IMG/VR virus record: IMGVR_UViG_2565956710_000003
Location: 1-46,613 of that record
Length of the DNA: 46,613 bases
Source of the DNA: a virus
Lineage: Duplodnaviria; Heunggongvirae; Uroviricota; Caudoviricetes
Reading direction: 5' to 3' (one strand)
Below, one piece after another: positions 2,791 through 46,613 of the stretch. Position 1 is the first letter of the stretch; every line of letters begins with the position of its first letter. Made by a program: the position numbers and the translations under genes. The notes below the pieces were generated by a model. That model worked only from the letters and a program-made list of their open reading frames with translations. It made no database searches and was not told the origin of the DNA.

Positions 2791-3135
2791 TTAGTCCTTG
2801 CGTAGCTCGCTGATTCTTCTGTAAGTCTCTGGTGCTTTGTTTCCGTGTATCTTCATTTCAGACTTCAACAGAGCAACGAGAGAATCCCATTCGTTGAGGA
2901 TGCCTTTGAATGCCGGAACGCGCTTTGCAACCTTGTCGAATGAATCTCTGATTTCTGGAATCTGCTCAACAAGTGCAACGCATCGCCGAAAGTCTGCTGC
3001 GTCATGGGGAGCGCCGAAGTGATGACCATAGATATTCTTTTTCAGGCCACATGCGATTGAGGCAAGAGTTGCGCTACTGATTCCGACATCGCCAGTTGAT
3101 TGCCATTTCAAAACCTTCATAGCCAAATCTGACAT
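2791..3135 (-). CDS. Hypothetical protein (early-left accessory region)
   Basis: 114-aa ORF with a GGAGA Shine-Dalgarno 6 nt upstream of the ATG; same strand as the pL operon. Confidence 0.55.
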   Translation of the reverse strand: MSDLAMKVLKWQSTGDVGISSATLASIACGLKKNIYGHHFGAPHDAADFRRCVALVEQIPEIRDSFDKVAKRVPAFKGILNEWDSLVALLKSEMKIHGNKAPETYRRISELRKD

Positions 3136-3207
3136 TTCTTGTCTCCATAAAACAAAACCCGCCGTAGCGAGTTCAGATAAAAGAAATCCCCGCGAGTGCG
3201 AGGATTA

Positions 3208-3492
3208 TCATTCATTGCCGATATTTACCTTTATCGCGTATACCTTTACCGGTTTATCGCCGAAGTGGGGATGCGTGATTGTCTTGATTTCATATCCGTC
3301 ATAAGGGACGTCAATTCTGCGGCTGGAATCGTCGCGCTTCGGGTATCCCTTTGTGATAATCAGGCGGTCATACTCGCGTAACATAATTCGCTTATTCCAG
3401 TAGTCATTACACAGGCGATACTCTTCCGTTTTCTCTCCACGAATCATGGCATCGAAGTATTCACCTTTGACGGCAAGTTGCAGGTTAGTCAC
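3208..3492 (-). CDS. Hypothetical protein
   Basis: 94-aa ORF with a GTG start preceded by AGGAGG at 6-nt spacing; the longer ATG-start ORF would overlap the upstream gene by 46 nt. Confidence 0.5.
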   Translation of the reverse strand: MTNLQLAVKGEYFDAMIRGEKTEEYRLCNDYWNKRIMLREYDRLIITKGYPKRDDSSRRIDVPYDGYEIKTITHPHFGDKPVKVYAIKVNIGNE

Positions 3493-4228
3493 GGTTAACC
3501 TCCTGCGGCGGTTTTGCTGCAAAATGCGCAATACCTTTATCCCAGATGGATTTTATGGTCGTCCACGTGACTGGTACTTTAATTTCAATCCGCCCGCTAC
3601 CGTCACAGGTATCGCAATCATCATCGCCAAAGCATTCCGGGCAGCTTATAAACGTAGTTTCTGAAAATTCACCGGATAGCACACCCTTAGCGCCGTTCTC
3701 AGCGGTTAGTTTCTTCGGCACTATAACCCAACCATCCGGAGTTACCGGAGAGTTGCCACCGGGAATATTTTCCGGAATATTTTGTTGTGCGTTTTGTGGT
3801 TGTTCGGATTTACCATGAAGCATGGCGGCGCGGCAGGCGTTCCAGCCAGCTGTTCGCCCAAGCGCGTAAACTTCAGATGGCTCAAGATAATCAATGTCAT
3901 GCCCGTCCTCATCGTCGTTCTCAGGTAATGCAGCAGGTACTACCGGTACTGGCGGGGCGGTGTAAAGTGGAATAGCTTCTGTCTTGCACCCATCCCCCTT
4001 GCCGGGTGATAGTGGCGCAAGACACACCCGCCACGGGCCAATCTGCACACCGTCAAAAAGACTAGTAAGCCGCCATTTCCACGCTACAGGCTCTGCTTCC
4101 AGCGATGCCAGAGCAATTCGTGCCAGTTCTTCCGCTTCTTCTGCTGGCAGTACAACGTTGCTACCAGGTCCGTATGTTTCGCGCCACCGCTTGATTGTCA
4201 GTAGTCGCTCTTTGGTTATAGTGGTCAT
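3485..4228 (-). CDS. Hypothetical protein with C-terminal Cys-rich cluster (CPECFGDDDCDTCDGSG)
   Basis: 247-aa ORF in the pL operon orientation. Confidence 0.55.
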   Translation of the reverse strand: MTTITKERLLTIKRWRETYGPGSNVVLPAEEAEELARIALASLEAEPVAWKWRLTSLFDGVQIGPWRVCLAPLSPGKGDGCKTEAIPLYTAPPVPVVPAALPENDDEDGHDIDYLEPSEVYALGRTAGWNACRAAMLHGKSEQPQNAQQNIPENIPGGNSPVTPDGWVIVPKKLTAENGAKGVLSGEFSETTFISCPECFGDDDCDTCDGSGRIEIKVPVTWTTIKSIWDKGIAHFAAKPPQEVNRD

Positions 4229-41592: not shown

Positions 41593-44298
41593 ATGACAGA
41601 CATTACAGCCAATGTTGTGGTAAGCATGCCATCGCAACTCTTCACTATGGCGCGTTCTTTTAAAGCTGTAGCTAATGGCAAAATTTATATCGGTAAAATT
41701 GACACTGACCCGGTAAATCCTGAAAACCAGATTCAAGTTTATGTAGAGAACGAAGATGGCTCTCACGTTCCTGTTACACAGCCAATCGTCATCAATGCCG
41801 CTGGGTATCCAGTATATAACGGACAGATTGCCAAATTCGTAACCGTGCAAGGCCATTCTATGGCTGTTTACGATGCTTATGGCACTCAGCAGTTTTATTT
41901 TCCAAATGTATTAAAATACGATCCAGATCAGTTTGGCCCAGACTTCAAAGAGCAGTTATCTCAATCAGGAGCATACATTAATGATGATTCAAAAGGTGAT
42001 GCATTAATTGGTGTAAGGCAGCCATTTACCGGGGCTGTAACTATAACTCAGCATGAAAACAATGCTCTTTTCTTAAATGTAAAACAATTTGGAGCAATTG
42101 GGGATGGGAAATATCATCCATTATCTGAGTGGTTTTCTTCAATTTCTGAAGCAAAATCCTTATATCCTTTTGTTGACTCATTATCTCAGTCAATAGACTG
42201 GGCCGCGTGGCAAGCTGCCCTTAACACAGGAAAGGTTATTTATGGTACTGATAATGCGTATGTAATAACGGATACGTTAACACCTGTTTCTGGTGGTGGG
42301 ATAATTTGTCTTGGTGTGGGCAAATGGGTCTCAGGATATACTGCAACATTTGCTCCTGATATTACCACAGGAACCACATTCCTGATGTACGGGGTAGGAA
42401 ATAAAAAATATACTGTAGATTGTGTTTCTAATATGGATGTTAGTGGTGGTGTGGTTTCTAATCCATCTTCCGAAGACCCGTATACAACAACGGCACCTGC
42501 GTCATCATATGATTTATTGGATTTTACTAACGGTGATGCTAATGGGGCTATAAGAGCCACGCTTAAACCATTCTCTGCCGCAATATTGATGCCTGAGACA
42601 GGATGTGTTCGCCTTGAGAACTTTCGTATTGTTCCATATTTCAATGGGCTGGATGGTTATAAAGACATTGCAAATACCGGTCTTGGCGATGAGTGGGATG
42701 TAGGTATTTGGTCACGTGCTTCTTTTGGCAATGAATACCGCAATTTGCAGGTGGTTGGATACTGGCGCAAGACGGCACTTTTAAAAACGAACATTCCTGT
42801 ATCTGGCACGCTGGCCGCTCAGGGCGAGGATGAAAACTATTATCACTGTAGATTCCAAGGATTCAAGGGTGTTTCGATCCGCGCCCATGATGTATTCCGA
42901 ATTACAGCGGTAACGTCCAGCACTATCGAAATCCCATGGTCAGCAAGCCACACCTTCGAAACGTCCGGGGTTTTAAGATCTGGAGGCAGGAATTTCACTT
43001 ATTCAGGATTATCCGTATCCGGTGATAAGTTAGTATTTACTGGAGTGTCTAACGCTTCTGAGGCAACAGTAGGTTCTACTATACGGCGAAATGACATAGA
43101 TAACTTTGGTATGGCGGGAACGCAATTTTTCGATTGCTACATTACCAGCCTGTATCACCACACACATCTGCTTGCCACATCGCAATACCTGTCTCAACCA
43201 TTCAGCCGACCATCAGAGTGTATGGAGGTTTCAGGGGAACCAGTTCGCGGTGTACAGGTACATGCAGGAACCATTCAGGGATGGGATGATGTTCTTATTC
43301 ATCTACATGACTGTGGAAATATGAACTTTTACAGTACATATTTCGAAAGCCAGCAAGCATATGTAACTATAAATGGTGGTAATGCTATTGGTTATGGAGC
43401 ACGTATGATAGCTTCCCGGCAATCAACAAGCTCATTACCATATGCAGCAGGGAATACTCGAGTGCTTAGAATGGTCGGGTGCTCTGAAGGCAATGGCGTT
43501 GACTGGGGGCCTGTATTTAACAACTATACAGGAGGAAGATATAATTCTGGAGACGGTGTATTTAACCCCCGCGATGCATTTATAGACCATAAATCTCTTC
43601 CTGAGCAGTCAGGAGGTGAGTCAAGACTCGTATCACAAAAAGGAAATGCCAGAGTAGTATGTGGTGTTGGTAAAACTGTACTGCTTGGACCAACGTCAGG
43701 AGATTGTAATTTACAGAGTAATACTGGAAGTTTAAATATTAGAAGTGGGATAAGAGTAAGAATCGGTCACGCTGATGGAACAGACTGGTGGTTGGCAGAT
43801 GCTAATAAAATAGCTCCTGTTGATGATAATGTTAAAGCTATTGGACAGCCATCAAACAGATGCTCTGTTATTTATGCAGGAACCGGGTCAATCAATACAT
43901 CAGATGAAACTCTTAAAACAAGATATGATATTCTTAATGCAGAGCGTGATGCCGCTATTGAAATAAAGTCAGTCATCTATAAATTTAAATTTAATGACTC
44001 AATTAATCACAAAGGAATTGAGTCGTCCAGGTATCATTTTGGCGTTGGCGCTCAAACCGTAGGGGATATTCTTAGAAAGCATGGTTTAAACCCTGAGCAA
44101 TATGCTTTTTGGTGTTACGATGAATGGCCTGACGTATGGGATGAAGAGGTGATAACTGAAGAGAGCACAGATCCTGATACAGGTGAGAAAATTTATTCTC
44201 AATATAAAACAGGAGATATGATTCTTGTTAAAAAAGCAGGAGGACGCTACGGAATTCGTTATGACGAATTGGCTATGTTTATATTAATGGCAATGTAG
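41593..44298 (+). CDS. Tailspike: P22-type head-binding domain, divergent receptor domain, C-terminal intramolecular chaperone
   Basis: 901-aa ORF; N-terminus [59 protein letters not shown] matches the P22 gp9 head-binding domain; C-terminus has an S74-type autoprocessing signature ([12 protein letters not shown]). Confidence 0.85.
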
Positions 44299-44639: not shown

Positions 44640-44807
44640 GCGCTAATGCTCTGTTACAGGTCACTAATACTATCTAAGTAGTTGATTCATAGTGACTGGA
44701 TATGTTGTGTTTTGCAGTATTATACAGTCTATTTTTTAAGCTAAATGTATTGTAAGAGATTGAGATTAATGATTTTTCCTGTTTCTGGTTCAGCTTTTTT
44801 ATACTAA
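44640..44807. other. attR (P arm with Int arm-type sites, plus core 44793-44807)
   Basis: CTGTTACAGGTCACTAATAC...AGTGACTGG arm-type sites resembling the lambda P arm; core GCTTTTTTATACTAA followed by the host B' sequence CTTGAGCGAAACGGGAAGG. Confidence 0.85.
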
Positions 44808-44897: not shown

Positions 44898-45374
44898 TTA
44901 ACTAAACATCGCAGTAATCGAGGCACTCGCCAGAGAGTGAAAATGAACGTTAAACCCGACCATCGCGCCGCTGGCACCTTCATCGACATCAATACGTTCT
45001 ACATCCAGCGCGTGAACGGTAAAAATGTAGCGATGGGTTTCGCCTTTCGGCGGCGCTGCGCCATCGTACCCGGTTTTACCAAAGTCGGTACGCGTCTGCA
45101 AAACGCCGTCTGGCATAGCTACCAGACCAGAGCCAAACCCTTGCGGTAATACGCGGGTATCAGCGGGTAAATTAACAACTACCCAGTGCCACCAGCCGGA
45201 GCCGGTTGGCGCATCCGGGTCATAGCAGGTGACAACAAAACTTTTCGTTCCCACAGGAACATCATCCCACGCCAGATGCGGTGAAATATTATCGCCATCG
45301 TAACCCATGCCGTTAAAGACATGACGATGCGGCAGCTTATCGCCATCGCGCAGATCGTTACTGATGAGTTTCAT
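44898..45374 (-). CDS. ybhB: Host YbhB (PEBP/RKIP-family protein)
   Basis: 158-aa ORF with the conserved PEBP motif DPDAPTGSGWWHWVV; right flank of lambda attB. Confidence 0.85.
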   Translation of the reverse strand: MKLISNDLRDGDKLPHRHVFNGMGYDGDNISPHLAWDDVPVGTKSFVVTCYDPDAPTGSGWWHWVVVNLPADTRVLPQGFGSGLVAMPDGVLQTRTDFGKTGYDGAAPPKGETHRYIFTVHALDVERIDVDEGASGAMVGFNVHFHSLASASITAMFS

Positions 45375-45482
45375 TAGAATGCCTCCGGGAAACCTCGGCC
45401 TTCAGACCGGGGAGGAAAGGAGGCGGTTTTCCGACTAACTGTACTTTGCATAATCACATTTTCCTCTTTAGTATGTGAACAC

Positions 45483-46613
45483 ATGAAACGCGCATATAAA
45501 TACCGGTTTTACCCGACAACTGAGCAGGCTGAGCTTTTAGCTCAGACGTTTGGCTGTGTGCGCTTCGTCTACAATTCCATCCTTCGTTGGCGTACCGATG
45601 CGTACTACGAGCGAAAAGAAAAGATCGGTTATCTACAGGCCAACGCTCGCCTTACGGCGCTCAAAAAAGAGCCTGAATACATATGGCTGAATGATGTTTC
45701 CTGCGTTCCCCTCCAGCAGTCGTTGCGCCACCAACAAGCCGCCTTTGCTAACTTCTTTGCCGGACGAGCTGCATATCCGGCTTTCAAAAGCAAACGGCAC
45801 AAACAGGTGGCTGAGTTCACTGCCAGCGCGTTTAAACACCGTGACGGCGAGTTGTATATAGCAAAGAGCAAGTCGCCGCTGGATGTTCGCTGGAGTCGAG
45901 AATTACCATCTGCGCCGTCAACCGTTACCATTTCCAGAGATAGCGCTGGCAGGTACTTTGTTTCCTGCCTGTGTGAGTTTGAACCTGTATCAATGCCTGT
46001 TACCGCTAAAACGGTCGGCATTGATGTGGGCTTAAAAGATTTATTCGTCACCGATACCGGATTCAAAACCGACAATCCCCGCCACACCGCTAAATATGCG
46101 AAGCGATTAACGCTGCTACAGCGACGTTTAAGCAGGAAGCAAAAAGGCTCAAGAAACCGTATTAAAGCCCGCTTAAAGGTCGCCCGACTCCACGCGAAAA
46201 TCGCCGATTGCCGGATGGACAATCTGCACAAGTTGTCCCGCAAACTGATTAACGAAAACCAAGTTGTTTGCGTCGAATCCCTCAAGGTGAAAAACATGAT
46301 CCGCAACCCGAAGCTGTCTAAAGCAATAGCTGACGCAGGCTGGAGCGAACTTGTTCGCCAGCTCCAGTACAAAGGCAAATGGGCCGGGCGGTCAGTGGTC
46401 GCCATTGACCAGTATTTACCGTCCTCAAAATGCTGTAGTTGCTGCGGTTTCACCATGCAAAAAATGCCTCTTAATGTTCGTAAATGGCACTGCCCTGAAT
46501 GCGGCGCAGACCATGATCGCGACATTAACGCGGCACGTAATATTAAAGCTGCCGGGCTGGCAGTGTTAGCCCACGGAGAGCCTGTAAACCCTGAATCGCA
46601 GCACGCGGCTTAG
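45483..46613 (+). CDS. tnpB: IS200/IS605-family TnpB (OrfB; RNA-guided RuvC-like nuclease family)
   Basis: 376-aa ORF beginning MKRAYKYRFYPTTEQAELLAQTFGCVRFVYNSIL, with a RuvC-like core (VGIDVGLKDLFVTDTG) and a C-terminal zinc finger CCSCCGF...CPECG; no tnpA in the 108 bp upstream. Confidence 0.85.
   Translation: MKRAYKYRFYPTTEQAELLAQTFGCVRFVYNSILRWRTDAYYERKEKIGYLQANARLTALKKEPEYIWLNDVSCVPLQQSLRHQQAAFANFFAGRAAYPAFKSKRHKQVAEFTASAFKHRDGELYIAKSKSPLDVRWSRELPSAPSTVTISRDSAGRYFVSCLCEFEPVSMPVTAKTVGIDVGLKDLFVTDTGFKTDNPRHTAKYAKRLTLLQRRLSRKQKGSRNRIKARLKVARLHAKIADCRMDNLHKLSRKLINENQVVCVESLKVKNMIRNPKLSKAIADAGWSELVRQLQYKGKWAGRSVVAIDQYLPSSKCCSCCGFTMQKMPLNVRKWHCPECGADHDRDINAARNIKAAGLAVLAHGEPVNPESQHAA

Follow-up and report, generated by a model that had tools for sequence, protein, structure and literature searches.

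The window, i.e. the whole stretch of 46,613 nucleotides that was analysed, contains the lambda att core GCTTTTTTATACTAA at positions 1331–1345 and 44793–44807 (attR, plus strand), with no copy expected by chance. The two cores bracket and thereby define a prophage of about 43.4 kb (about 1346–44792) integrated at attB-lambda, which encodes a 901-aa tailspike-like protein (41593–44298). Beyond attR, the window overshoots by 1.8 kb into host DNA carrying two genes on opposite strands: ybhB (44898–45374, minus strand), an intact member of the kinase-inhibitor/PEBP family (NCBIfam PRK10257, 343 bits), and tnpB (45483–46613, plus strand), whose TAG stop codon forms the right edge of the window. 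Their start codons are exactly 108 bp apart, as given in the preliminary description. The mobile element to which tnpB belongs abuts the ybhB start codon, begins 568 bp from the attR core and is located between ybhB and bioA. Its position in the ybhB-bio interval beside the lambda attachment site had thus been recognized correctly, and two mobile elements do occupy adjacent positions. The significance attached to this neighbourhood does not hold: the element is present in 342 genomes whatever fills attB and target recognition of the two elements is unrelated, so that the adjacency is coincidental. Eighteen IMG/VR contigs (L165–L182) contain an identical tnpB, and each ends exactly 3 nt past the protein match, corresponding to the tnpB stop codon. 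The window therefore represents a prophage prediction that continued beyond attR as far as the end of a gene; ybhB and tnpB belong to the host and are systematically taken up as phage genes, a boundary artefact. In a CFT073 record (NZ_CP051263.1; L002, 1–3643), the lambda att site holds bla(TEM), a 5S rRNA fragment, msbA and araC, an insert that looks like an engineered integration cassette and not like a natural prophage.

The tnpB reading frame starts with ATG and encodes a protein of 376 aa. The Pfam families HTH_OrfB_IS605, OrfB_IS605 and Cas12f1-like_TNB all score far above their cut-offs, the NCBIfam model guided_TnpB matches with 369.5 bits (cut-off 100), and RefSeq labels the gene product ‘RNA-guided endonuclease InsQ/TnpB family protein’. 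Alignment with the structures of ISDra2 TnpB (pdb-codes: 8bf8, 8exa, 8h1j) extends from end to end (E 9e-75) and assigns the RuvC triad to Asp181 (46023–46025), Glu265 (46275–46277) and Asp347 (46521–46523), and the zinc-finger ligands to Cys318, Cys321, Cys337 and Cys340. The full-length TnpB with RuvC core and C-terminal zinc finger previously proposed is thus confirmed, with unmutated catalytic residues. Triad and cysteines are invariant across 101–104 aligned relatives, and the dN/dS ratio of tnpB relative to these is 0.09–0.12; TnpB is under purifying selection across the family (dN/dS about 0.1). Within the near-identical E. coli-type copies, the full 376-aa frame is kept in 36 of 40 sampled, the other four being of different lengths; the frameshifted or truncated tnpB of strain 33E is one of few such copies.

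Completion of the element required sequence past the right edge of the window, which was taken from strain K56-43-un (L001; window coordinate = L001 coordinate + 40699), the last 52 bp of the element being supplied by identical genomes. Comparison of the occupied locus with the empty K-12 site defines an element of 1291 bp (45375–46665). The empty site reads TTTCAT followed by GAACCCTCCTTTC (also shown as TTTCAT followed by GAACCCTCC), and the occupied site TTTCAT, TAGAATGCCTCC...(1291 bp)...GGGGAGCCGTCAA and GAGCCCTCCTTTC, or in short form TTTCAT, TAGAATG...GTCAA and GAGCCCTCC. Insertion occurred 3′ of TCAT and with zero target duplication, and the element terminates with TCAA. The TCAT target, also the putative TAM, lies directly 5′ of the left end (45371–45374, plus strand), and reads ATGA on the opposite strand, where its CAT (45372–45374) supplies the start codon of ybhB. 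The homology shared by 20 relatives in other Enterobacterales sets in directly behind xTCAT and breaks off directly behind GTCAA. In 39 independent relatives, the left end has xTCAT before it; a second subgroup of relatives carries TTTAT/TTAC as flank in its place.

Both ends contain subterminal imperfect hairpins. In the left end (108 bp, 45375–45482), at whose first base the homology among relatives starts, the predicted DNA fold consists of an inner hairpin (CCTCGG 45393–45398/CCGGGG 45407–45412) and an outer stem (GCCTCC 45381–45386/GGAGGC 45419–45424), all on the plus strand. The right end comprises the 52 bp from the tnpB stop codon to 46665, with the hairpin CCCCGTC/GGCGGGG and the terminal TCAA. 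Both left-end stems covary between the subgroups, and the right-end stem likewise covaries among relatives. Hairpin and element end are 18 nt apart in the left end and 9 nt apart in the right end, similar to the 19 and 10 nt of IS608. Extension to the right, as recommended in the preliminary description, yielded a canonical right end with conserved hairpin, and in addition a covarying RNA scaffold (see below).

Within these boundaries no open reading frame other than tnpB was found, and no tnpA on either side. The 108 bp of the left end, the 52 bp of the right end and the position of the bioA stop codon, which in full genomes is 110 bp from that of tnpB, leave no room for one; the earlier assignment as a solo tnpB of the IS200/IS605 family is borne out. 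Clustering of open reading frames likewise revealed no conserved neighbouring frame, and hence no tnpA, at any of 79 related loci. The element shows features of the IS1341 group: a TnpB without Y1 or serine transposase, subterminal hairpins, TCAT insertion without duplication and a conserved right-end motif. Moreover, each published descriptor of ISEc42 (E. coli, IS1341 group, no Y1, 376-aa TnpB, TCAT/TCAA, 1294–1295 bp, 165 copies in 164 genomes; PMC9956272 supplement) agrees with the element in length (1291 bp, or 1295 with TCAT), TnpB size, end motifs, host and roughly one copy per genome. Judged by these descriptors, the element is an intact ISEc42 (ISfinder; IS200/IS605 family, IS1341 group). 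ISEc42 has been in the literature since 2014 and was reported from B2-ST1193 UPEC genomes. A tnpA accompanies only about 25% of tnpB genes, whereas about 75% are solo (Meers et al. 2023). ISEc42 is hence a known object and a solo tnpB normal for the IS1341 group; with the element already named and catalogued, and solo tnpB genes common, the finding itself adds little.

The gene order ybhB-tnpB-bioA occurs in 342 of 5426 complete E. coli genomes, always as one chromosomal copy at the same locus, and 333 of these 342 copies are at least 99% identical. In the search for other copies suggested previously, and for an autonomous partner, the 108-bp left end as query recovered only the same locus, apart from weak 50-nt plasmid matches. 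Carriers include CFT073, Nissle derivatives, E2348/69, NRG857C and NC101, which we take to belong to phylogroup B2. The ybhB-bioA spacer is uninterrupted in 5077 E. coli genomes, K-12 among these.

An RNA of the omega type was looked for by aligning the 3′ part of tnpB and the right end of 20 relatives over 127 nt (46539–46665, plus strand). RNAalifold predicted 28 base pairs in six helices, stem 1 being formed by GCTGCC (46548–46553) and GGCAGT (46559–46564), and compensatory double changes support 22 of the 28 pairs. Pairing is retained in 95.5% of the cells versus 80.7% in column shuffles (0 of 500 as high), and falls to 37–50% when the partners are slid by 1–3 columns. In the last 26 codons of tnpB, dS is 2–4 fold lower (0.23–0.30) than elsewhere in the gene (0.46–0.98). 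This conserved 127-nt region is, judged by covariation, a putative omega-RNA scaffold of the kind expected. The window contains the first 75 nt of it (46539–46613), in the 3′ end of tnpB, which corrects the earlier view that the guide RNA would lie beyond the right edge of the window; this holds for the last 52 nt of the scaffold and for the guide. An Rfam scan of the whole element in E-value mode detected no omega-RNA family and only a chance snoRNA match (E 0.43), and single-sequence folding of left end, right end and scaffold gave energies no better than those of shuffles (z −0.5, −1.4 and −0.4, respectively), so that it is the covariation which carries the evidence for an RNA structure.

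The predicted guide corresponds to the flank in the bioA-ybhB spacer, GAGCCCTCCTTTCTTGTTTG. A natural empty allele, that of strain MRSN346647, consists of TCAT followed by 20 nt perfectly matching this guide; the empty alleles of K-12 and O157 deviate by one (position 3) and three mismatches, respectively. At the occupied locus, GTCAA and not the putative TAM stands before the sequence that matches the guide, which should therefore be immune.

The insertion separates ybhB from its own translation signals. ISEc42 sits between the old Shine-Dalgarno sequence AAGGAGGG and the ATG of ybhB, and AAGGAGGG is now found past the right end. On the minus strand, the segment 45381–45386 of the left-end outer stem reads GGAGGC and is placed 7 nt upstream of the ybhB ATG, an apparent replacement Shine-Dalgarno sequence from which ybhB may be translated. 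As the left end provides this new predicted ribosome-binding site (GGAGGC, 7 nt, ATG), the insertion need not silence ybhB, which is annotated as intact in the carrier genomes examined. In the opposite direction, the tnpB ATG lacks a Shine-Dalgarno sequence. A possible promoter TTGCAT-N17-TAGTAT (within 45437–45482), read by hand and below the scanner threshold, lies 8 nt 5′ of this ATG, which may point to a leaderless or near-leaderless tnpB mRNA; the promoter-like site is not above chance in the scan for promoters and terminators, which gave two sites versus 1.3 expected from shuffles. An overlapping, outward-oriented site facing ybhB, TTCACA-N18-GATTAT (with TG), was considered as a further promoter and is not claimed: it shows no excess over shuffles and is kept only among near-identical left ends.

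Contact between element and start codon is not a peculiarity of ybhB. From 221 collected loci, 39 independent TCAT-type sites were obtained by placing left and right ends with profile HMMs, and 34 of these abut the ATG of an outward-facing open reading frame of at least 100 aa or running off the contig (L004, L009–L012, L016–L018, L065, L066, L105, L110, L112, L113, L115, L119, L124, L127, L131, L183, L190, L208, L211, and others). The abutted ATGs appear to be genuine start codons, because the NCBIfam models for TrbC, TrbI, RfaQ-like and dehydrogenase neighbours align from profile positions 1–3; of 31 empty sites that were reconstructed, 27 contain no more than 25 open codons upstream. Of 1278 further TCAT sites within these flanks, 20.8% yield such an open reading frame (binomial test against this value: p 1e-18) and 6.1% resemble true starts. 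Under a null model of selection only, in which all non-coding and start-like TCAT sites are equally tolerated, 33% would be expected versus 87% observed (p 4e-12). Five of the 39 sites are exceptions, of which L062 resembles an insertion at a start codon followed by a nonsense mutation in the gene, and L186 is followed by a 12-aa frame overlapping the next ATG. The TTTAT/TTAC-type relatives show no start-codon association.

A left-end motif resembling a Shine-Dalgarno sequence (GGAGG-like), 6–8 nt upstream of the ATG and in place of the host ribosome-binding site, is found in 27 of the 34 start-codon cases. The TCAT-type elements of Zobellella/Pseudomonas possess a GCGCG stem without such a motif, yet abut start codons in five of six cases; the idea that the outer stem GGAGGC recognizes a target CCTCC is for this reason unsupported. 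The pattern may reflect either an extended target recognition or strong selection after insertion. That ISEc42-type elements with a TCAT target are start-codon-specific insertion sequences is a proposal that we put forward tentatively and with more doubt than conviction. Insertion, or survival of the inserted copy, would then be confined almost entirely to the ATGA with which a gene begins, the element being oriented away from this gene and mostly bringing a replacement Shine-Dalgarno sequence, as a dedicated ‘silent insertion’ strategy or by extended recognition of RBS and ATG. A literature search on associations of TnpB/IS605 elements with start codons or ribosome-binding sites, and on tnpB together with ybhB, gave nothing relevant. 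The start-codon pattern is the one unexpected point and may merit a separate look: an unrecognized extended target preference or a cost-minimizing design would bear on the persistence of TnpB without transposase, and on how annotation pipelines handle 5′ untranslated regions beside such elements.

For the locus as a whole, we consider it very probable that 45375–46665 is a complete, non-autonomous ISEc42, inserted once in trans at the TCAT before the ybhB ATG and since then inherited vertically as a single immobile copy, which combines a catalytically intact TnpB with an overlapping predicted omega-RNA, would home to the empty allele and may have provided ybhB with a new ribosome-binding site. 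The scenario would start with a Y1 transposase (TnpA) supplied in trans, which inserts ISEc42 once as single-stranded DNA 3′ of TCAT, between Shine-Dalgarno sequence and ATG of ybhB. At the map position of ybhB-bioA the top strand of ISEc42 is presumably the lagging-strand template, as predicted by the rule for IS608 and ISDra2. The event probably took place in an ancestor of the E. coli lineage to which CFT073, Nissle and E2348/69 belong and was followed by vertical inheritance of one immobile copy, the left end serving ybhB as the predicted source of its GGAGGC. The last 75 nt of tnpB and the 52-nt right end would be expressed and processed as omega-RNA scaffold, with the guide read from the adjoining bioA-ybhB spacer GAGCCCTCCTTTCTTGTTTG. 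If it behaves like its counterparts from ISDra2 and Geobacillus, the ribonucleoprotein should then cut the empty allele, in which TCAT as TAM precedes the matching sequence. Recombination at the cut allele could restore ISEc42 after excision or spread it upon meeting an empty allele, which corresponds to the homing model for TnpB (Meers et al. 2023). With a single copy in each genome, nothing points to recent mobility, and the nuclease may currently be without a task. Nevertheless, the locus is a natural example, in E. coli, of a predicted guide that matches without any mismatch an empty allele found in other strains of the species, so that the idea of homing or drive becomes testable in a model organism, with tractable strains such as Nissle or CFT073.

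The same single, transposase-free copy might also be a dead passenger in which expression or activity of TnpB and its RNA has been lost, and in which the reading frame survives merely for lack of time, the insertion being young compared with the rate of mutation. One copy at one site with at least 99% identity in 333 of 342 carriers, the lack of tnpA both here and at the 79 related loci, and the occasional frameshifted or truncated copies, such as that of strain 33E or the four of 40 with other lengths, fit this explanation. Nevertheless, we regard an inert relic as unlikely in view of the family-wide purifying selection (dN/dS 0.09–0.12), the invariant catalytic and zinc-binding residues, the covarying RNA structure, and the preservation of both ends and of the complete frame in 36 of 40 E. 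coli-type copies.

Fixation at one locus in a lineage without transposase, directly at the start of a gene and within the transcription unit bioA-ybhB, with a predicted guide antisense to the former 5′ untranslated region of ybhB, could alternatively be read as domestication, the host having recruited the protein-RNA pair as a TldR-like regulator of the ybhB/bioA region instead of a transposon service. TldR regulators are reportedly nuclease-dead, and loss of the RuvC residues and of the transposon ends distinguishes them, whereas ISEc42 keeps the triad and two canonical ends. Close relatives reside at dozens of unrelated loci, and the guide-matching DNA of the occupied locus, which follows GTCAA and not the putative TAM, should not be bound. 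Domestication is thus highly improbable, more so than the relic, and a complete ISEc42 with an intact TnpB/omega-RNA module persisting by vertical inheritance remains our preferred reading.

From published ISEc42, the element does not differ in any descriptor; the tnpB-only organization, the 376-aa TnpB, TCAT/TCAA, the length and about one copy per genome are common to both. A relative outside the locus is a tnpB-only element with 81% nucleotide and 86% amino acid identity (L004, plasmid pMB9880_2, 97 kb, 2891–4185; L006). The L004 type occurs on phage-plasmid-like replicons of about 97 kb with 43 E. coli plasmid matches, is surrounded by genes for ssb, lysozyme and a 6.8-kb N-6 DNA methylase and abuts the annotated start codon of a gene for a 339-aa protein of the NTP pyrophosphohydrolase family; the copy on pL9-1 is truncated and lies beside lnu(G). 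A solo tnpB of 62–67% identity is present in at least 13 copies in one Endozoicomonas MAG (OZ246962.1; L036, L037, L042, L045, L046, L049–L052, L063, L070, L075, L080), with an extra stem inside the RNA scaffold and flanks of the TTAC/TTAT type. This copy number points to recent mobilization in trans there, unlike the single immobile copy in E. coli.

With ISDra2 of Deinococcus radiodurans, ISEc42 shares the Asp-Glu-Asp triad, the zinc finger, subterminal hairpins and, as predicted here, an RNA scaffold that extends from the 3′ end of tnpB across the right end, with a guide taken from the flank. ISDra2 has its own tnpA and targets TTGAT. Its TnpB comprises 408 aa compared to 376 aa here, where only 52 bp follow the stop codon, the flank is TCAT and tnpA is missing. 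The ISGst2-type elements of Geobacillus stearothermophilus similarly consist of tnpB and omega-RNA only and are presumed to be mobilized in trans (Meers et al. 2023); their TAM equals the transposase target motif, and TTTAT and TTCAT are used there too. In contrast to the single-copy ISEc42, they are multi-copy and accompanied by autonomous partners. The closest parallel to a start-codon placement combined with a ribosome-binding site in the left end is offered by the IStrons, composed of a group I intron and an IS200/IS605 tnpB, which are likewise IS200/IS605-type elements with a device that makes the insertion phenotypically silent (PMC4227781). The device of the IStrons is RNA splicing within genes, whereas that of ISEc42 is apparently insertion immediately before a start codon together with the Shine-Dalgarno sequence of its left end.
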